The translations under genes and the position numbers were made by a program. Source: Peribolospora baueri (taxonomy: Eukaryota). Taken from it: a stretch of DNA of 64,000 nt. Of this stretch, positions 47,701 through 64,000 are shown in pieces; position 1 is the stretch's first letter, and each line of letters begins with the position of its first letter. The DNA lies in assembly GCA_029717555.1 (NCBI GenBank), contig JAMDHS010000031.1, positions 124,001 to 188,000 on the forward strand, in the 5' to 3' direction. A model generated the notes under the pieces. That model saw only the letters and a program-made list of their open reading frames with translations, was not told the DNA's origin and did no database searches.

Positions 47701-48767
47701 ATCGTGGTCAGGATCGCCGGGGCATTCGCTCACCTTCTCCAACCGACCCATCTCATCCTTTAACCCGACCTTGCTCGGCGTCGCCGTATCCACCATCCCA
47801 TCAGCCTCCTGCTCCTTCCACACAAACAGTCGATGTTTACCTTTCTTGAGCGTCCTGCGAGCATTCGAAAGACAGGGCCGAGATGCAGATGAGAACCGGA
47901 TATCCGTTCCGGCAGGCGCAGAAGAAGACAGAGTCGCTCCCACTCACCCTTTCTTGCCGAACAACCGAAACGTGGTCCCTCCCACGACGTTGGTTTCCCT
48001 CGGTCCGGCAATGTCATAGATAGTAAAGGTGACTTGGGCGTTGAGAGGTAGGTCACACAGCTTGAGGGGCATATGAATCCATTCGCTCCACCTGCGTCGC
48101 CCAGAAGAGCGCGTCCAAAGATGCAAGAAACGCACGCCGATATGAGGGCCGACAAGTATGACCGTTCTTCAGCTTCGGATCTAGACACTCCTGCATCTAT
48201 GACCACGCTCACGCATGATTGGTCTTGAACGGCTTGTACGCGGTTCGGTACGGCACCGTCAAAGGCTTGTTTTCCGCCCACAGTTGGCATACGACATAGA
48301 GGTCCGGGAAGGGGCTGTTATTACGTACGAACATGCGGGAGAACGGTGAGCGGATCGAAAGAAACGATGGGAGAGGAGATACCGTCAGCCTTGAGAGAAA
48401 AAAAAAGGCTGGGCTGTCGCTCACGTGGCTTGGAGGCCCCAATGCCTTGCCTCAGGATGTTCCAACAGCTCGGTGAGCGGCTTGCGTTTCCGGATACCTT
48501 CAAGGGAGGATCTGTAAAGAACGAGGGGATGCAACGACAGAGGACGTAGTATGAGATACGACGAGAACAAAAGCCATAGGCGACGGCGCTCGTCGGTCCG
48601 CGCAATTCTAATCCTAAGCCTCGTCCAGTCCAGCCACTACCGATCGGTGCCTCCTCCACTCGGGCGCCAAACGGGGACGACGACAAACCGATGACGCACA
48701 TCCGGAAGGCCAGCGGAAGTTTGAGGTCGGTGAGCTTGACAAACGAGTAAAAATCCTTTGCGTCCAT
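44795..48767 (-). CDS. VPS34: Class III PI3-kinase Vps34, multi-exon
   Basis: C2 domain (WSEWI..PL...DLP), helical domain [70 protein letters not shown]-terminal HDFAQYFRQ*. Confidence 0.96.
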
Positions 48768-49958
48768 TCTCGTCCGTCCGTCCGTCGTCGTTGTCGTTGC
48801 AGATCGGTTGGACCGAAACCTTGGTCAGGCTCGAAGTGATCGACGCTGGACCTGGCCCGAACGTCGGTGCCGCAGTTCGTCGAGACCGCAGCTGATTGAT
48901 ATCATTCATCCCTTCTCTATCTGCTATATCTGCTATCTGCGAAGACTCAACCAACTCACTCGCCCGCTTCTCGACGAGCCTCATCTCATAGATGGCACGG
49001 CGCGATGTGATGCGACGCCGAACCACCGCGACTGGATCGTGACGTCTCGCAGCGCATGGCTGATGGACAGAGGCAGGCTACAAGTATTTAAAAAAAAAAA
49101 AAAAAAAGAAAAAAAAGGATGAATTGACCAGTTTCCGCATCTCCACCCTTCTCCATCGTCTTCCGCCGCCGCCTGAATCGCTCGTTTTGCGTTGTTCTTG
49201 AAGAGTGCCGATGTAGCTAGCTCATGGGCATGGCCTGGACGACCGACCCGGCCCGACGTGGCACTCGCGGCAGAAGACGTCATGTCATGACATCTGGACG
49301 GCGGCGCTGAGGAAAAAGTTGTGCGCCCATGTTCTAGAAGCTCGCGGTCACAGACGTACATGAGCGACGAATGCGAGCGAAGAAGCCGGCTCGGCTCGTG
49401 TCCGTGTCCGTGGAGGTCAATCATCTATCTATTCGAACGTGCGTCTTACATGTGCGACGCTCGCCGTCTGCCTCGCCTCGACTCTGCTTACGGCAAACTC
49501 CATCCCACAAAAAGCCCCTGCCCCTCACGCTCCCGACGACGACGACGTGCTCCGACGCGAGCGAAGGACGTGCCGCGGGACAGAAAAGAAAGATATTTCT
49601 CATTAAAAGCTCTTGACTGGATGAAGGAGCGGGGCGGAACGAAGTACTCGAAAAGACGAACGAAAGGAGATCGATCGAGAGAGAGAGAGAGACGGGAACA
49701 GACAGAACCTCCTTCCATGTTTTCTCCCTTCCTCGCTTCCTTCCTCGCTTCCCATTCATCCCGTTTCGTGAACAAAGAGGCTCGCGTCCGATCGACGAAT
49801 CGGCGCAAAGGAGAATAGAGAGAGGAGCGTGGTGGTGGGGGGAGGGAAGCAAGAACGGACGGACGGACAGAACGAATTTAGGTATCGGTGTTGGGTGTGA
49901 GAGACGTATGTGAGAGAGATGTGGGTGGCAGGAAGACCGGAGGCGGATCTGGGGACCA

Positions 49959-52527
<2,569 letters not shown>

Positions 52528-53308
52528 GGTGGAGGTGGGGGGTGTTTAGGGAGCGAAGGTGGAAGGGAGCGAAGAGGGGGGCTGGAGGGAAGAAGGGAAG
52601 GAGGATGGTGGTGGTGGTCGGAGCGTTGGCAGTCAAGTCCTGGGCGGGCGGCGACGAGAAGCGCGGGCGTGGGTCGGCAGCGGGGCGGAGGAGAGGAGAG
52701 GCAAGGAAGGAGGGAGGGCGAGAAGGGAGGGAAGAAATCGAGAGCGCGAGTCCTGGTTGGTTGCGCCGCTTGCTGGCCGGCGCACCGCGCTAGCCCTTAT
52801 CCCCACCCATCCCCGCCTCTCTCCGCGACGCGCTCCCCCATGGCGTGCCGCAGCGCATTCCAAACGCAAACGCCCAGCTCGCAGCAGCTTCCTGCCCTCG
52901 TTCGTGACATTCGCCCTCAGTACGGACCATGGCCCGTCTACAATACACAAAGGACGCCGGAAACGTGAAACAGACGAGACGAACACCAAATCGGCGCCAC
53001 AGCAGATGGGGAGAGATGAAAAATGAGATGAGACGAGATAAGACGAGACGAGACGGTAACACATGACACGAGACGGCGTGGGAAAAAAGAAAAAAAGCCC
53101 AGCTGCGCACGCCCTCCCTCTACCGGCGTCAAGGCCAAACAAAGCCTTTGGCTCTTCTCTCTCGAGATCCGGATCCTCTTCGAACGACCCGATGCGACGC
53201 GACGCGACAGACAAAGACAGAAAAGACAGACAGACAGATAACAGGCAAACGAATCGGCGCAAGAGGGAGCGAAACACACGACGGTAAAAGCGCCAAGCGT
53301 CGCCCCCG

Positions 53309-56273
53309 TCACCGCTCGCGTTCGGGCTCACGCTCGGGCTCTGCGGCGGGGACGCCGACGTCCGCGCCTTCGCCCACCACGGCCACGAGGACGGTAATGT
53401 CTAAGTGATGAAAAAGCAAAGAAAAGCAAAGCAGAATAGTCAGCCATCAACCACCCTGCCATCCATCCACCCTCCACACTCCGATAACTCACCATCCCTC
53501 TTCCCCCCCGCGTAGCTCAACCCTTCCTCCATGGCCCTCTGCTGGAACGGACTGCTGACGGCGCGCGTGTCCTGGCTCACCGCCTTGGCGCGCGAGCAGA
53601 GCGCCTCCGAAACGAGCTGCGGCGAGAAGCACGGCCGAAGGGAGAGCGGCGTCGGCGAGCGCGGTCGACACGGCGTCGTCTCTCCTGCCGTCGTCATCGC
53701 CGGACTAGAAGGCGGCTTTCCGGCGCTGGAAGGCGGAGAGCTCGCAGAGGACGATGAGTCTTCGCTCGAGGCCATCGACGAGTCGTCGGACGAGTTGGAC
53801 GTCGGTGGAGGGTACAGCGACAAGAAAGAGAAGGAAGCATCCGCCGACGATGGCGTCCCCGTGTCAGGAGAAGAAGGGGAGGGGCAAGGTTGGGCGAGCT
53901 GTACAAACTTAAGCACCTCCTCGACGATCTGTTCGTTGACCCACCGCCGCACATGAGGGAGAACGAAAGGTCGCACGTCAGCTCGCGTCTGCACATCCAC
54001 CGCCAAGAGAGGCATACTGTCGGACACAGCCACAGCCCACTCACGTCCTCGTCGAACAGGTTGTCCACCAACCCATCGCTCCCGAGCACCACTATGTCTC
54101 CCTTCTCCACCTTGACCGTCCACCTCCCCGCGTCCCGCCTAGGCTCGTCCCACCCTCCGTCGGCGAGTCCTCTTCCCTGAGCAAACTTGGCCTTGCGCGC
54201 GCGGAGCTGCGCCTTTCTAGCATAGTCCTCCGCCGACGTCGTAGAGGTGGAGGAGCGCGCGTCGGACGCCGAGACCGCCGCCGCTGCTCGTCTCCTAGCC
54301 TCGTCCTCCTCCCCCTCTCCCTCCCCCTCCCCCTCCGTAGCCGAAGCGCCGTGCGCCCGCTTGTCTCCCTCCGCAGCACCCATCATGCCGAGCTGAACGG
54401 GGAAATTGAAGCTATGCTGCTGTTCCAAGGTGCGAAAGATGAGTTGGCCCGGTAGAACCGTGCCATCGGCCGCTGTCAGCCGCTCCGTGACGAAGGCCGC
54501 ATCGCTGACCGTAGTGGCTCCCGACCGGCCGTCTTCGACAGACCCTCGCTCGCCACCGCCGCCACCGCCGCCGCCGCTATCACCACTACCGTCGTCAGGT
54601 CGATCAGGCCGGATGAGCATGAGCACGGAATCGCCGATGTTGGCCACCCGGAGCTCGTCGCCGATGAGTAGAGCCAACAGAGCCGTGGAAGAGCCGATGA
54701 TGCCTTCCGCTTGCGCCGCCCGCACGCACCGCTCCCACCCGCGCTGCATCAGCTCCACCGGGTCCTGCTCCACGTCCCCTCGCCCCACGTCCTCCCCCTC
54801 CGACCCGTCCCGCGACCGCTGGTAACGCTCGGAAGAACGCTCGAATCCCTCTCCGGAACCTTCTCTCCTCTCTCCTTCTTCTCTTTCTCCGCGCCCCTCC
54901 GCTCCCTCGCCCGCTTTCGTACCTGCGTCTCTCTGAAGTATGGTGGCCTGGGCGAGAGATTGCGTGGCCTCGTCGGCACAAAAGTGCATGAGCAGCCTAG
55001 AGAACATCGCTGGATCTGCACCCTCCCTTCCCGCCCATCCCCCGACGCCGTCTGCAATCCCGAGGGCGGACGGAAGGAGGAAGTAGGCGTCCTCGCCCAC
55101 CGAGACGGACAGGTGGGCTTGCGGACATGCTGAAGAGGAGGAGGAGGGGTCGAGAGCGAGCGAAGAAGAGGACGGCCGTTCGCGAGAGGAGGAAGGGTCA
55201 ACGGGGATCGGAGGAGGATCTGGCGATCGCTCCTTCTCCTTCTCCTTTCCCTTTCCCTTCCAGCTTCTCTGCCTCTCCGACCCGGCTTCGAAAGTCGACC
55301 CGCTGGGAGGCCGCGAAGGCGGGCCAGAACCGCCGCTCAGAGGGTGCCGCTTGGGAATGCCGTAGGCTCCGGTGCGGAAACCAAAATCCCTTCTGTCCGC
55401 ACCCTTGCTCTCGCCAGCGACGAGGGAATGTCGTCTCCGGGAGCCTTGGGGTACGGCCAGAGGCGGGTAGGCGTGATGTGCCGACGAGGGCGCGTACGGA
55501 GACTGAGGATCGGATGGGTCCGCCGCCGTCGTCGCGGAGGGCGCCGGCGAAGGATGGACAGGCATGGAAAGCACGCCAGGAAGGGTAGGGTCAGATGGAG
55601 GGGGGGTCGAGGACGTCGAGCTAAGCGTCGACCGAGCAGAGCCGGAAGATGAGTTGCCTCCCGACCCGGCCGAGCCGTTCGAGCCGCTCGACGGCCCAGG
55701 GCTCGCCGCACCGTTCGCAGGCTCGCTACCGCAACCGCCGCCGCCAGAGCCGCCGGCGTCCGCTACAGCGCCCCCCCCCGCATCGGACTTGGAGCCGGCA
55801 GGTAAAGGGCGAGGGTGGACGAGAGGAGGAGAGGGGGGAAAGACGGAAGGGTAGACGCCGGCGCCATTGCCGCTCGTTGGAAGTCCCACGTTAAGGCTGA
55901 CGCCGATGTCCGCGCCGTTCAGTTTGTAAGGATAGTACACGGCACCTCCGCCACCGCCGCCACCGCCAGGACTGCCGCCGGGAAGAGGGGCGGACCCTGA
56001 CGGAGAGCCAGCGCCGACATGACCACCTGGGCCAGCCGCGGGTGGCCAGAAGTGTAGCGTCCTCCTCTCCTTCCGATGGTGTTGATGCTGAGAGGGTGCA
56101 GGCGTGCGCGCTCCATCGCGAGAGGCGGAAGGGGCGGAAGTGGACGAGGGAGGAGGCGCGGCGGCGGTAAAGGCGAGCGCGGTGTGGTGTCGGTACGAGG
56201 AGGGGGCGGATTTTGCGGAAAGAAGGGCGGAAGAGCGCCCGGCTCTGGAGAGCAACTTGGTGGACCTAGACAT
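53309..56273 (-). CDS. PTC7: PP2C-family phosphatase, Ptc7-like, probably mitochondrial; 3 exons
   Basis: R/S/L-rich presequence; VGEDAYF..LGIADGVGGW, GSSTALL, ANIGDS, EQQHSFNFPVQLG, GDIVVLGSDGLVDNLFDED|, SPF...GGKRD|DITVLVAVV; TGA at 53311-53309. Confidence 0.9.
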
Positions 56274-57122
56274 CGGCGGTCCGCCCCTGAGAGACGTGAC
56301 AAGGGCCTACCACGGTCTTGGACGGGTCGGTGAGCGGGTCCAGGTTTTGACGAGAGACGGAGAGGTCAAGGTGAAGACGATAAAGATGTGGCGCAGGCCG
56401 GAATACGTCCGTCCGATATTGCGACCGATCGTGCAGGGTAAGAATTGGCAGCGCGGAGGCGGATGAATGGGGGCCTGTCGACTGGAGACCGGCGTGGGGA
56501 GGACGAAACCGACGAGCTGAGCTGCCCAGAGAAAACAGAGATGGTATCAACACGATTGGTCTATGCCCAGGTGTGAGTCGGAAGCCAACTGGGCGACAGT
56601 CGCCCCCGCGACGAGGCTGGAAATCACTCTGAGCCGGGAACTTCCGTCGCCAGGCACGTGACAGCGATGCAGACCACGTGGGACCGGCGAGGCGCTATCG
56701 ATGGCGGAAAGCTGAGTACGTCATGTTCTCGATCCATAAAGATGAGCGCCGGGGTGGTGCCTTGGACGAAGGAACCTCAAGATCTCGCTCAAGCTCATCA
56801 GCACGAAACGTTGCCTTGTCCTTGCATTTTTCACCCTGAAATGGGATATTGTCTCATTCACACTCAACAAAGATCGTTGTCATGGACAAAGAGCGGTCCA
56901 GTCCCAGGAAGGAAGTACAGTATATGAAGGGTCCCGTTCCCTTCCCGCTCTCCCTCCATCCTCAAGCCTTCTCCTCTCCCTACTTACTCCATAATCATCA
57001 CTGGCAAACCTTGCCCTTCTTTACCATCTCCCTCACTCCCTGCCGCCCCACTGCATCAGACTACAATGTCACCATGCTCTGACTCAGACGCCTGAGTCTT
57101 CGGCATTTTAGACACTTGGACG

Positions 57123-57287
57123 GTCAATACCATCGTCGTCGAGGACGGCTCGATCATCGAGTCCGGCACGCACGAAGAACTAATGGCGAGGAGGGGTCGT
57201 TACGAGCAGCTCCAGGCCAAGGGCTTCGTCGGACCCAGAAGTGCGGACGAACAAGGACTAAACCAAGGGCCATGCGGTGCTGAATAG
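57123..57287 (+). pseudogene. Isolated 3' fragment of an ABC transporter (end of nucleotide-binding domain, ABCB-like)
   Basis: Translates VNTIVVEDGSIIESGTHEELMARRGRYEQLQAKG...*, the post-H-loop motif of ABC NBDs. No Walker or signature motifs and no membrane domain upstream. Confidence 0.75.
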
Positions 57288-57320
57288 GTGGACCCAGGCG
57301 GAAAAAGGGCCGTCTGAGGG

Positions 57321-58166
57321 ACGAGAGTAAACATAGACAGCGTAGACCAGTCTAGCGCGACCGCTCTCTTCGCGAGTCCCCTTGGAAAAAAAGCTTTGAA
57401 ATTTTGCCATTCTGTTAAGTTATTCTCTCGGCCCTGCAAGTAGAGCGGCGTTACTCCTCGGCAAATCCCCCTCTTCCCTCGCCGACATCTTTACCGCCCT
57501 CGAAAATGAGCACCTCGCTCAGTTTCGGCACGCCCTCGTCAAACGGCATAACGGGCAAACGCTTTGTATTCTTTGCAAGATGCAAAAGCAGAGGGCACAC
57601 TCCCTGCGGCGATTCAAGGCGCGGTGCCCACCTTTGAACCTGTCCCATCTTTTCCGGGAGTCGGACGCAGCCCGCATGCAGGTCTGGGAAGATAAACTCC
57701 TACAAACGACCCTCCAAGCTCAGGATGCGTATTTCGCGTAGCATGTAGGATGCTATTTCGCGCCTGAGCTTGGAGGGTCGTTTGTAGGAGTTTATCTTCC
57801 CAGACCTGCATGCGGGCTGCGTCCGACTCCCGGAAAAGATGGGACAGGTTCAAAGGTGGGCACCGCGCCTTGAATCGCCGCAGGGAGTGTGCCCTCTGCT
57901 TTTGCATCTTGCAAAGAATACAAAGCGTTTGCCCGTTATGCCGTTTGACGAGGGCGTGCCGAAACTGAGCGAGGTGCTCATTTTCGAGGGCGGTAAAGAT
58001 GTCGGCGAGGGAAGAGGGGGATTTGCCGAGGAGTAACGCCGCTCTACTTGCAGGGCCGAGAGAATAACTTAACAGAATGGCAAAATTTCAAAGCTTTTTT
58101 TCCAAGGGGACTCGCGAAGAGAGCGGTCGCGCTAGACTGGTCTACGCTGTCTATGTTTACTCTCGT
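57321..58166. repeat. Long inverted repeat: arms 57321-57724 and 57763-58166 (404 bp each), 38-bp spacer
   Basis: The arm ends are exact reverse complements. Mirror ORFs 57451-57648(-) and 57839-58036(+) are identical, and all mirrored coordinates sum to 115487. No mismatch was seen in the segments compared, including homopolymer lengths. Confidence 0.97.
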
Positions 58167-58184
58167 TTCGATCAGCCCTATACG

Positions 58185-58600
58185 AGCGGTCCGGCATGAG
58201 ACGACGACGCCACACACGCCTCAGTCAAACGGCGTCGCAGAACGGTCCCGGGGCGTACTCTTCCCGACAGCGCGTGCTATGATGCTCGCGACTAATGCTC
58301 CAGCTCAGCTCTGACCAGAAGCAATGCGAGCTGCCGCTTATCTACGCAATCGCCTACCGACCAAAGGCAGAACCAAAACGCCGTATGAGCTCTGGTTCGG
58401 CAAACCGCCCACCTTCAATCACCTTCGCGTATGGAGGTGCAGAGCGTTCGTACACATCCCCAAAGAGCTCCACGAAGGCAAGTTTCAACCCGCGGCGTGG
58501 GTAGGTGCCATGGTCGGCTACAGCGAAACGAGCAAAGCATGGGATCTACAACGTGGAGACGCAAATACCGAATCGTGCGACGTCGTTTTCAATGAGGAAG
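58185..58600 (+). mobile_element. Degenerate Ty1/copia retrotransposon integrase fragment (end of rve core plus SH3-like domain)
   Basis: RHETTTPHTPQSNGVAER...ARAMM..NAPAQL*PEAMRAAAYLRNRLPT...TPYELWFGKPPTFNHLRVW.CRAFVHIP...MVGYSETSKA...DVVFNE. An in-frame TGA at 58312-58314 replaces the conserved Trp. No LTR, gag or RT seen. Confidence 0.92.
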
Positions 58601-59504
58601 TACGATGTGCGTCGCATTTCCTTTTTTTTTTCTGGCTTAGGCGTTTCTTGTTTCTTCACGCACTGACGTCGGCTCGTTCATTTTATCCGGGCACCCCTCT
58701 TGGCGTTTTGTTCTTCCTCGGATGACTAGGTCTGGCAAGTGGAAAGGGGCGTCATTACCCACTTTGTGATCAGCCCATCCTCCTTCAACCTGCCGTCCTG
58801 CCCGCTTTCCAACGTAAAGTCTTACGAACCTACTCAGAACGCCGCTATCCGCCTTCGCCTTCCCTCCTCGCAGTTGGCGGGCTTAATAAGCGATTGTAAC
58901 CAAGAGAACAAGGTATCGACCGGCTTTCACGCCGTTTGATTCCACCGTTGAAACCAGGGAGAGAGAGAGCGAATGGCGCTCCTTATATACAGCGCATCTG
59001 AGGATCGCATCCTTCCTATTGTTCCCATGCTCATGCACGTGCATACGGCTGCGGCAACTAGCAAGGGAGGCTTAACCGTCCCTTTCTTCTAACAGATGCG
59101 GTCCGTACACGTGCACGTTTGGACAAGACGGTCCCCTCGCACGTCGAACTACTCCGCCACCCTTACGATTTCCATGGCGTCGAAGGCGAAGGGAAACGGG
59201 GACGAGCTTCACCCTCTGAGACATGATAGGAAGCGGTGGCTTTCAACATTGCAACGGAGTGTTCGAGGGAAGGGCATGGGCATGGGCACATGTACACGTA
59301 CATGATCGAGTTATGAGAGCGTCGGGAGACAAGAAAGGAGGACGTCATAGGGTCGGATGGCCCCTCATCGTCGTCATTGATGTCAAGCTACCGACGAAGC
59401 GCACAACCGTCGACGACGGCGGAAGCAAACAATTAAAAGAAGGGAGATATAGCTGAGTAGCGTTCGACTGGTCGAATGTCAACTCGCAGCTCGCCTCCTC
59501 TCCC

Positions 59505-62363
59505 TCACGCCCCCAACCCGCCCGCCAACGCGCCCAACGCGGCTCCTTGCTCCGGGAATTCGCGAATGAAGCGCAATTGGGCGCGGGAGGCCTGTACAAG
59601 ACACGCAAAGCGAGCGAAGGGCCAGATGTCAGACAGTGGAAGCTGAGCCAGCCTCTCACTGACCAAAGCGAGCGACCAGGCCTTGGACAAGGAGGAGACG
59701 GAAAGGACGACTCACGTTTTCATAAGTGATAGCGTTGACCAGCTCCGGCTCCGTCCGGGCAATCTTGGCGCTCCGGTCGAACATGTCGATCGCCTCGTCG
59801 ATCTTACCCTGCTGTAGGCTCAGCTGGGCGAGCGTGGCTACAGCCACGTCGCAGTCTGGGTCGATGGCCAACGCCTCGCGGCAGAGCGCCTCGGCGGCCG
59901 GCATGTCCTGCTTCCACTGGAACAGAGCAAGCGCCTTGTTGATCATCGGCAGAACGTTAGGGCTCACGGACCTGTGAACGGGTATAGACAGATGAACGAC
60001 ATCAGCGAAGAGCGCTCCTCAAATCTAGGCAACAGGGTGTCAAGGCGACTCACTTTTTCCGCTCGATCTCGATCGCCCGGTCGAACTTCTCCAGGGCGTC
60101 CTGGAAACGTTGCTGGTCGAGAAGAAGCTCTGTGATCGCATATGGAATGGGAAAGTGACGATGTCAATAAGCGAGCCCTCCTTTCCGTCGATTCTGCGCT
60201 CCGACTCGACCCACCTCCGTAATAGTTGTACGCCTCGCTGCTCGACTCGAATTGCTTCAAAATCTTACGGAAGCTCGCCGTCGAGCTCGCCACGCTTCCC
60301 GTCTTGTATTGCGCGACGGCAAGCTGCACCTGGCTGAAGATGAACGTGTTGTCGAGCGAGGTTGACTTTTGGTAGTCCGTGATGGCAGAAGCGAACTCGC
60401 CGAGGATAAAGTGAACTGGCGAGGGGTGGCGAAGAAAGAGAAAGTATTGGGAAGTGTGAGGACTTCTCCTCGTGTCGGTCAGCCGGCAAGCCGTATCGAG
60501 TAGCAAGCCGCTCACCTTGTCCCCTGTGATAATAAATGTCTGGGTCGTCCGGGTTGGCTTTAATGGCCATGTCAAAGTCGTTAAAGGCGGCCTCCTTGTC
60601 GCCTGAGAACGAAGAGAAACGGAGAATCTGATCAGACGGTTTAATTCCCTTCCGCCGACTGCGACAACACAGGGCACTCACTCAGCTCCATGTGCACGCT
60701 GGCTTTCTTGACCCAGCTTTGAACGAATTCGGGCTTGAGCGTCGTGCTTTGCTCAAGGTCGACCAGCGCCGACTTGGCATCCCCGATGACGAACCTGACG
60801 AACATCGACGGAGCTTGTTCAGAATCGGTCTTCTTTCTCAGTCGCGAATGCACCTGGGTTCGGCAACGACTCACTTAAAGGTGCCCCGCATGTTCAGCGC
60901 CTCGGCCTCGGCGTCCTTCGTACTCAAGCCTTGCTCGAGTGACTCGTTGAAGAGAATTAAACTCTTGCCATAATCCTTGGCGTTCAGAGCATCGAAGGCG
61001 AGCTGGAGGGTACGATCGCCTTGGCTCGGCTCCGGCGGCAGCGAGGGACGTGGACGCGGGCGGAATGCCTCGAGGTAAGCGGAGACGAAGGTGGGAGAGG
61101 GAAGGCGAGGCTCGCGAGTCTACGAGCAGAAGAGAAACGGAAAGTGCATGTTCAGCCGTCGGGGTATAGAAGACCATCAACTCTGCCGGTCCAAGGCTCA
61201 CCCGAAGGATGTCGGCTGCCTTGCTCGTCGCCAGCTTTTTAAGAACACGCTCGACGCTGGCCGTCGCCGAATCGTCCTTGAACTGACCGAGGATGGCGAC
61301 GGCGGTAAAGTCTGCAGGACGATCCGAATAGAGTTAAGATCGCATAACTGACCGCACCCCGGATGCAGACAAAACTTCCCTCAACTCACCACACAGGGCC
61401 TCGAACAAGAGAGACCTCTTCTCTTCGTCATCCACCACGTCCTCGCCCTCCGTCGCCTTGGCTGCTGCCGCTCCACTCTCGTCCTCGCTTCCCAACGCCT
61501 CCCTAGCGACTCCTCTCCGATTAAGCGCCTTGATGTATTTGCGATCGAGCCTGAGCGCCTCGTTGCAGTCGTCCACCACCCGCCTCGGCTGGCCGAGGTT
61601 GGCATAACAGGCGGCGCGGTTCGAGAAGAAGACGGCTTGGGGGGCACAGGAGATCGCCTTGTCGTACATGGCAATGGCCTCGGTGAACTTCTTCTGGCCG
61701 TAGAGACGGTTGCCAGTCGCCTTAAACTGCTGGGCTAGAGAAGCGCGGCGCTGTCGCGGAAAAGAAGAAATGGGGAAGTGAGCACGTACGCAAGAGCATC
61801 GAACCCGCGAATGCACACATCACTTACGTCAGCGGGCAAGGCGGCGATGTCCGTCTCTGAGAATTTCGAGAGGTCCTCTAACAAGGGCGGTGGAAAAACG
61901 GAGGGGAGCCGAACGAGTGAGGAAGATGCACGACAGCCAATCGGCACAAATTCACAGACTCGGCGGTCCGTTCGCCGTCCTACTCACCCTCGCCCTCGCT
62001 GGTCTTGTCCTTTGGCTTGACCTCCTCCAGGAGCGGCTCATCGCCGGTCTTCTCCAACTGGTCCCTGCTACTGGCGCCGGACCCGGTCTTCTTCCCCTTG
62101 CTCTTCTTCTTCTTCTTCTTATCCGACTTGCCCGCGGCTCCCTCTCCCTTCTCTACATCCCCTCCGTTGTCCCTGCTGGAGGTGTAGTAGTAGTACCCAG
62201 CTCCGGCCGCGAGGAGGGTGGAGCCGGCGAGGAGGGAGAGGACGAGCGTCTGGTTCTCCTCCACCCACCGCGCGAGGCGAGAAGTGGTGGTTTGGACGTG
62301 CGTGGAGGCCGAAGAGGCGGCGTCCGAGGCGCGTGAGGCCGCCGTTCGAGCAGTGTCGGCCAT
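59505..62363 (-). CDS. TOM70: Mitochondrial import receptor Tom70, multi-exon
   Basis: N-terminal anchor [21 protein letters not shown] followed by a K-rich tract; TPR clamp FKATGNRLY...[54 protein letters not shown]. Confidence 0.95.
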
Positions 62364-62923
62364 GGTGGGGGTTGCGGATCGGGCGACGGTAGAACGGTGG
62401 CGCGATCGGCGGCGAGAAGAACGAACGGGCGAAGGGCAAGAGCGTCGATAAGCGGAGGTGATAGATGGATGGCGATGCTACAATCTCCGCGACGATGGTC
62501 CGTCTTCGGTCGTCCGCTGTCGTTCGGCTTGCGCTCTTATGGGATGCGGCAGACGCTGCTCTATGAAAGGAGGAAGAAGGTGTGTAGGTATGCCTCTCGG
62601 TCTCCTCTCTCCAGCGTCGTCCGTCTCCGAGACGCGTCTATCGCCGTCCCGCTTTTTTTCGATCGGACCGCCGTCAGCAACGATCCGGATGTCGGCGCCT
62701 TAACGCCGCCCTTCTCCGCGCCGAGCGCGTGCGACAGCCGCCTCGCGCACGCAATCTGATCGAGTGGTAGCCATGCATGGTGGTGGATGAACGGAGACGA
62801 GGGGGAAGACGTCGGCAGTAAGCCTTTCTTCTCCCTTTCCATCCCATCATCATCGACAGACGCACCTCCGTCGCGCCTCCGCTTCCGCCCCCCCTCACAT
62901 ACTCACCTTTGCTCCAGCACTCC

Positions 62924-63462
62924 ATGTCCGACAACGAGGCCCCCCCGCCGCCGGCAAAGACCGAAGGTGGCAGCGACCAGCTCAACCTTAAGGTCAAGGA
63001 CGCTGAGGGCGGCGAGGTCTTCTTCAAGGTCAAGAAGACCACCAGGCTTGGGAAGCTCAAGCTCGCGTATGCGGACAGGGTTGGAAAGTCGCCCAACACT
63101 GTGCGATTCCTTTTCGACGGTAACAGGATCGCGGACGATGACACGGCCGAGTCGGTGAGTTTTGCTGTGCCGATGGTCGAGGATCGAAGGAAGCTACAGC
63201 ACGACAGGGGGATCTGGATGCTGCTTTGGCAACACAAGTTTAGTCTCTGCTTTCCTGGGACGTCTGTCGTGCGCAAGGGGCTCCGGCGAGACTTTCACCC
63301 CGTGATCGTACCACCAACGTCTTCTGTCTCTTTGTCTCCCTCTCCCATTTTTTCTCCCCTTTTCCCCTTCCGGCTTCACTCATTTCGACTCCCTATCAGC
63401 TCGGCATGGAGGAAGGCGACGAGATCGACGTGCTCATCGAGCAAATCGGCGGCCGGCGATGA
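62924..63462 (+). CDS. SMT3: SUMO; exons 62924-63154 and 63400-63462
   Basis: QLNLKVKDAEGGEVFFKVKKTT.LGKL..AYA...VRFLFDG.RI..DDTAES|LGMEEGDEIDVLIEQIGG-RR*. Confidence 0.97.
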
Positions 63463-64000
63463 ACGTATGCTCCTCGGGCGGCCGGACCCACCTTCCAGCA
63501 TGCGCTCTCGTCTCGCCATCGGACGGGAGGTCCTTCTTCGCTCCCTTTTCCATGTTTCGGAAGAACGGCGGTCCTGGCATCTTCGAGACGTCCCCTCTGC
63601 TGGCTTCGGTGGCTGTGGCCGGCTTGTCTGCGGCGAAGCGGCTTGTGGAAGAGGCTCGAGTGTCTGGACCACGTCACGTTGACGGGGATGCGAACGGGCC
63701 GTCCCATTATCTTTCTTCGCCGCCTCTGACTACCTTCATCACCTCCGCTTTCTTCCCCGTTTGTGTGATCTTTGTCTAACTCCGATACGTCTCTTGCATG
63801 TAAAATTACTTTCCTCTCATACCGTGTGCCACCTCTCCCCCGCTTGGTTGAACCTCAACTGTCCTGAGAACCACCTGCCCTCTTCCTCTCTCACACATGA
63901 GCTTCCTCATCTACTTCCCAGGCCTCCTACCAATCTCCTTCTTTTCTCTCCTTCCTTCTTCCTTCTTTTCCTTCCTTTACACCGTCCTTCTGGTCACCCC

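Follow-up and report, generated by a model that had tools for sequence, protein, structure and literature searches.

Is the long palindrome at positions 57321–58166 a genuine part of the genome and, if so, is it a locus producing silencing RNA or a scar of DNA repair? The window, by which we mean the whole 64-kb stretch of DNA that was analysed (G000:C241:124001-188000), belongs to an assembly of 22.7 Mb in 668 contigs, and C numbers below are contigs of this assembly. Alignment of the two arms agreed with what the earlier note had described from the letters, namely that 57321–57724 and 57763–58166 are reverse complements, matched at 404/404 positions and separated by a spacer of 38 nt, and the peptides that it quoted were located in the palindrome frames. 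The next longest inverted pair in the window is only 38 nt, and no inverted repeat of 40 nt or more appeared in 600 kb of genomic DNA after local shuffling.

Four DNA runs from one study cover the stretch as contigs, two of them from two samples of one organism (X1 and X2, organism A) and two from another (X3 and X4, organism B). They were compared with a reference, 55800–57790, that comprises the left flank, one arm and the spacer and extends 28 nt into the second arm. In organism A the contig of the unique left flank, with a depth of 83.9 in X1 and 107.3 in X2, ends 30 nt inside the arm, and an arm contig begins exactly at 57321 with depths of 180 and 197.6. This is 2.1x and 1.8x the depth of the flank, and not the half coverage that had been proposed as the mark of an artefact. 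A contig of 98 nt holds the entire spacer with both arm ends and is letter-identical to the window in X1 and X2, and in X1 a loose end found at 57321 reads as the reverse-complemented right flank, indicating that the right junction exists. The spacer contig is shallow, with depths of 31.4 and 51.1 (0.37x and 0.48x of the flank), and the whole palindrome is spanned by none of the organism A contigs, which therefore leave the orientation of the spacer unfixed.

A snap-back chimera, made in the library or in the assembly, would fit the shallow spacer and the missing spanning contig; both organism A runs come from one study, and one of them may be the source of the assembly itself. Against it stand the identical spacer in two samples, the raised arm depth, the right flank found at a branch placed precisely at 57321, and similar fold-backs elsewhere in the genome with 2–14% arm divergence, which cannot be library chimeras. 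Hairpins are also reported to hinder PCR-based methods (PMC8701086), and the low spacer depth is likely caused by amplification bias of the hairpin, or else there may be a mixed centre. We consider an artefact extremely improbable, and the palindrome is real.

The palindrome and its immediate surroundings consist of the following features, from left to right:

56780–57132, + strand: dispersed non-coding repeat, LTR-like (22 matches elsewhere in the genome at 66–87% identity, some being pieces of one copy)
57108–57212, + strand: scrap like the C-terminal end of an ABC-transporter ATPase, the family read by eye (6 other genome matches, 38–56%, best E 7e-5)
57321–57724, + strand: left arm, the ancestral copy (organism B contigs are continuous over the flank/arm border, 55800 to 57485)
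57321–57455, no strand assigned: outer arm part, single-copy apart from the duplication (a DNA search of 57130–57470 returns the two arms only)
57456–57737, + strand: inner arm with the first 13 spacer nt, dispersed repeat (82% relative at G000:C77:3510-3703; organism B contigs)
57725–57762, no strand assigned: spacer, 38 nt, local sequence (from its anatomy, the C77 relative and organism B contigs ending at 57737)
57763–58166, − strand: right arm, the new inverted copy, 0 mismatches (arm alignment; organism B without cover at 57743–57790)
58167–58602, + strand: scrap of a Ty1/copia-type integrase end plus SH3, containing an in-frame TGA and directly abutting the right arm (5 other genome matches)
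58604–58869 and 58860–59094, no strand assigned: two more dispersed repeat scraps (71–93% matches on C644, C44, C66, C640 and C88)

This patch is flanked by a PP2C-like gene on one side and by a TPR (Tom70-like) gene on the other. The neighbouring beta-tubulin, PP2C-like frame, TPR gene and SUMO are intron-rich, so the host fits a fungus, and a reading by eye places it as basidiomycete-like. An open frame of 870 codons at 53694–56306 (−) has a PP2C match with an E value of 0.0019, which is under the cut-off, and contains long low-complexity inserts. The repeat at 56780–57132 has a TATA-like box near 56920–56929, oriented toward the palindrome and located in a conserved column block of a 10-copy alignment. 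A scan of 114 ORFs from loci near its copies gave one TE domain (L030) and no family for the repeat. Same-strand pairs of the repeat occur 2.5–2.8 kb apart (C11:98620/101084 and C450:120030/122799), and these could possibly be the LTRs of a small non-autonomous element. The ABC-transporter-like scrap gives 65% over 23 aa in tblastn, while a DNA search of the genome finds this locus only and no close donor; the scrap is present also in organism B. On the right side the scrap matches PF25597 (SH3_retrovirus) with an E value of 4.5e-18, over the cut-off, and rve_3 weakly with an E value of 0.0076, under the cut-off, i.e. an rve end followed by a retroviral SH3-like domain, the order of a Ty1/copia integrase.

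The arm had been taken for the broken 3' end of an unknown gene, a description that does not hold. By the similarity searches it is a mosaic, lying amid transposon scraps, of a 135-nt single-copy piece (57321–57455) and 282 nt of a dispersed repeat (57456–57737). The parent copy that was to be silenced in trans did not turn up either, as the sole other copy found, among the best candidates scored in an assembly that may lack repeats, was the scrap of 194 nt and 82% identity on C77, which adjoins a chromodomain scrap and exactly matches 31 of the 384 21-mers of the arm. The inner arm looks by eye like copia gag (Retrotran_gag_2/UBN2) on a conserved frame of 37 aa. A Pfam search of the arm gave no match, the inner arm is absent from the 10 PF14223 matches of the genome, and compared with a profile of nine gag scraps from the same genome it reached an E value of 0.26 and a hhalign probability of 0.45%. 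Searches for a name of the arm gave none of 8 candidates, 0 matches among 1.84 billion representatives and no atlas match; none of 398 pattern matches was confirmed and there were 0 exact matches in metagenome contigs, Rfam had 0 matches over 55500–60000, and there were no look-alikes of the locus in the other genomes compared. The arm shows no sign of a RIP-like bias, with a CpG o/e of 1.07 and a TpA/ApT of 0.93, similar to tubulin.

The polarity of the duplication can be read from organism B. Its contigs extend from 55800 in the left flank to 57485 inside the left arm, with 35 (X3) and 30 (X4) other letters, corresponding to about 2% divergence, and the bins 57274–57407 are covered by the flank contig only. 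The orthologous copy of the inner arm was assigned by its 0 other letters, and contigs of organism B depart from the reference at 57737 with onward letters that are not inverted. Neither run gives any cover at 57743–57790, i.e. part of the spacer and the start of the inverted arm, and the word share of the organism B runs across 56700–58900 is 0.30. At least three further contigs per run start at 57456 with different upstream letters, and the inner-arm repeat (57456–57737) has several more relatives in organism B (X3 and X4) than in organism A. Since organism B crosses the left junction, is without the spacer and has a closest copy that continues un-inverted, the right arm is the new copy. These contigs show that the left arm predates the split of organisms A and B, and that the right arm and the centre, seen only in organism A, are new. 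The same comparison bears on the frame of the left arm that had been described as ending in DAYFA-TAG inside the spacer; the peptide is there, but the TAG is no natural stop, organism B having other letters at this place.

A copy dating back to the split between A and B would be expected to have 7–8 arm mismatches, and 0 are seen (P 2e-4 to 8e-4). Together with the inverted copy being seen only in organism A this bears out the earlier suggestion of a very recent inverted duplication, and its upper age would lie near 0.4 of the A/B split, unless the arms have been homogenised by mutual conversion.

The spacer has an anatomy of its own. The first 13 nt are the natural continuation of the repeat, as seen in the C77 relative and in the organism B contigs ending at 57737; the 3' part, 57747–57762 (16 nt), re-copies 57722–57738 minus one base; and within the spacer there is a 6-bp inner inverted pair, 57739–57744 and 57750–57755. 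Made of local sequence, the spacer bears a signature of template switching, and an alternative reading of the letters is a tight fold-back with a small secondary switch after it. For an inverted microhomology at the switch point in the ancestral sequence, the comparison by eye covered 30 ancestral letters, from organism B; the 6-bp pair itself belongs to the spacer. No target-site repeat flanks the palindrome, and no direct 16-mer of the arm, i.e. no third direct copy, occurs in 48000–57320 or 58167–64000.

We favour, with a probability of roughly two in three, an in-situ fold-back inverted duplication, a chromosomal repair or replication scar within an old mosaic of transposon scraps, the mechanism being deduced from the anatomy. 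A break or a stalled fork near 57740 would have let the nascent strand fold back or switch to the opposite strand, one or two slips over 7–16 nt would have given the asymmetric spacer, 404 nt would then have been copied backwards, and the inverted copy would have ended in a junction with the integrase scrap that used little homology or none. The palindrome may persist since it lies in junk DNA and its centre is no longer a perfect palindrome, and asymmetric centres are believed to stabilise palindromes (PMC8701086). A transcript reading through it would give a 404-bp stem that Dicer could cleave, as a by-product without a known intact target.

A fold-back transposon or MITE, with the arms as its long terminal inverted repeats, would likewise have long and perfect inverted arms with a short core between them. 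This reading is largely refuted and we hold it to be highly improbable, as the locus has no target-site duplication, the whole unit has no second copy in the genome, the core re-copies local sequence, and organism B contigs pass without a break from the left flank to one arm, indicating resident sequence rather than an inserted end. It is likewise very improbable that the inversion was formed on a retroelement cDNA or a loose single-stranded fragment that was then captured at a break. The fold-backs of this genome do lie mostly in retroelement scraps, and breaks in yeast are reported to capture inverted pairs from one locus (PMC11724301), but the duplicated piece spans the older single-copy/repeat junction 57455/57456 and its left arm is common to organism B, indicating that it was copied from the chromosome after the mosaic existed.

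The fold-back duplication that we prefer has known counterparts. DNA breaks of S. cerevisiae are described as acquiring fold-back (templated inverted) insertions with a loop of 41 nt and an NHEJ-type second junction (PMC11724301), and like them the present locus has adjacent sequence copied inverted, a loop of about 40 nt and a low-homology second junction. The local events in yeast are mostly 5–34 bp and reach more than 150 bp, with a 10-bp inverted microhomology as seed, whereas the copy described here is 404 bp with a re-templated centre in a natural genome. Replication-error inversions are reported with a median inverted piece of 160 bp and a median spacer of 30 bp (PMC13334657), and the TRP/INV events of A. 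flavus reportedly cluster in repeat-rich regions (bioRxiv 10.1101/2025.01.14.632981). The DUP/INV/DUP structures outlined in these two sources resemble our locus in the inversion of hundreds of bases, a spacer near 30 bp and template switching, but here the third direct copy is absent and the inverted arm joins an unrelated-looking scrap. A small inverted triplication of the DUP/INV/DUP type was accordingly rejected, there being no direct third copy after the inverted one.

The genome was surveyed with a script for fold-backs having arms of at least 40 nt and a spacer of at most 1000 nt, and loci duplicating an already counted place were removed (L015 and L016 share 697 nt). In unselected DNA, 600 kb from four large contigs that may be repeat-poor, three clusters were found in 3 of 60 stretches of 10 kb, the edges of which lose a few events. 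Loci picked by repeats or retroelements (31 loci, 97 kb) had seven clusters in six loci, and nine loci picked by genes had none. In a second set, chosen with the gag model, five of nine loci carried fold-backs; without one place that had been counted before, it was four of eight. Pooled, repeat-picked DNA has 12 in 123.8 kb and unselected DNA 3 in 600 kb, a 19-fold difference (binomial P 1.7e-7), and extrapolation of the unselected rate gives about 110 fold-backs per genome (95% range 23–331). Some hits of the survey (L039, L134) may be transposon ends.

Four of these, in unrelated classes of element, share the geometry of short spacers and nearly identical arms. L038:472-825 (G000:C17) has arms of 157 bp (100%) with a 40-nt spacer inside a copia RT scrap, and L135:1727-2023 (G000:C329) has arms of 111 bp (98%) with a 75-nt spacer and cuts a copia gag (PF14223) scrap; in both, the spacer is the coding continuation of the element itself. 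L010:1103-1489 (G000:C665) has arms of 159 bp (99%) and a 69-nt spacer in a scrap that by eye is LINE-endonuclease-like, and L123:1884-2197 (G000:C77) has arms of 133 bp (99%) and a 48-nt spacer in an RT-like scrap. The fold-back on C665 adjoins the closest relative (91%) of the integrase scrap in the window, and L123 adjoins a Penelope-like RT frame, recognised by its motifs by eye and without a Pfam match. Older or nested fold-backs are found at L137:259-1281, L139:550-1534, L059:7292-7805 and L072:6952-7490, with arm segments 86–100% identical. The range of arm identities, 86–100%, indicates a continuing process whose products decay, and the 404-bp palindrome is one of many such scars and not special in this genome. 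In the literature, where subscription papers were mostly outside the coverage, no description of a basidiomycete with retroelement debris rich in fold-backs was found.

Some observations count against the scar, the low depth of the spacer among them. The 19-fold excess in repeat-picked loci seems larger than tolerance in any non-coding DNA predicts, and selection for, or targeting of, TE hairpins may be an alternative to neutral tolerance; a repeat 400 nt upstream carries a TATA-like box directed at the palindrome; and organism B, in which no such hairpin is seen, has more inner-arm relatives than organism A. The function that the earlier note had suggested would be that of a working hairpin-siRNA locus, where read-through would make an 846-nt fold-back RNA that is cut by Dicer and guides Argonaute to relatives of the element. 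The driver of the read-through could be the TATA box of the LTR-like repeat or the converging TPR gene, and the many fold-backs in TE debris would be a kept library of loci that compensates for a missing RdRP.

RNAi genes, whose absence had been named as a ground for refuting the hairpin-RNA role, are indeed present in the genome. One locus each was found for a predicted Argonaute, recognised by pieces of ArgoN, linker 1, PAZ, Mid and Piwi, and for a predicted Dicer-like gene, recognised by pieces of Dicer_dimer, RNase III and dsRBD; the domain pieces follow in order on C175 and C110. A second RNase III match, on C641, was rejected as a Dicer, being mitochondrial mL44-like instead. The models PF05183 and PF25358 gave no RdRP candidate in the genome, a search without a positive control that leaves the absence unproven. 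The full stem is predicted to fold with 415 pairs at -898 kcal/mol. In addition, fold-backs are about 19 times denser in the repeat-picked loci, half of the eight new gag-picked loci carry one, and the surplus of inner-arm relatives is in the organism that shows no such hairpin. On the other side, no intact target was found but one 82% scrap only, single-copy sequence, offering nothing to silence, makes up a third of the arm, the event is younger than the A/B split and hence not conserved, and other fold-backs decay to 86–92%. A working siRNA locus at this place is in our judgement possible but unlikely.

Two silencing systems resemble it. The palindromic loci of Naumovozyma castellii are, as Drinnenberg in 2009 is said to have found, Ty fragments with 100–400-bp stems in a species without RdRP. 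The present locus has the stem, made from a long inverted repeat, that a locus of this type calls for (100–400 bp). In N. castellii such loci give 74.1% of the siRNA reads (PMC7528652), and the likeness extends to long inverted repeats that are many per genome in a fungus with Dicer and Argonaute. Transcripts and siRNAs were measured there, whereas our locus is known from DNA alone, and unlike N. castellii the host here is basidiomycete-like with a canonical multi-domain Dicer. In maize, Mu killer is reported to silence through a read-through hairpin (PMC3440606), and as in our locus a transposon sequence is duplicated inverted with possible read-through from the flank. In Mu killer the duplicated sequence is the transposase and TIR of an element that is active and was shown to be silenced, while here we have a 404-bp mosaic scrap, and no intact or active element nearly identical to the arm was found in the genome, the best candidates scored giving the 194-nt scrap at 82% only.

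Taken by itself, the locus is on our preferred reading an ordinary, well-dated repair scar of a known kind, and its value lies in the genome-wide pattern and in the contrast between organisms A and B. A wider idea, which we regard as speculative and distinctly improbable, is that a host with Argonaute and Dicer that may lack RdRP draws its dsRNA from transposon debris turned into fold-backs, either as a renewable library of hairpin 'killers' or through a fold-back repair biased toward TEs. If this were true, one of the most recent additions would be the perfect 404-bp copy. A close sister pair with and without the fold-back, in a genome whose transposon debris accumulates fold-backs and where RdRP may be missing, would provide a cheap test system for the question whether hairpin siRNA loci begin as repair accidents and are later retained for transposon control.
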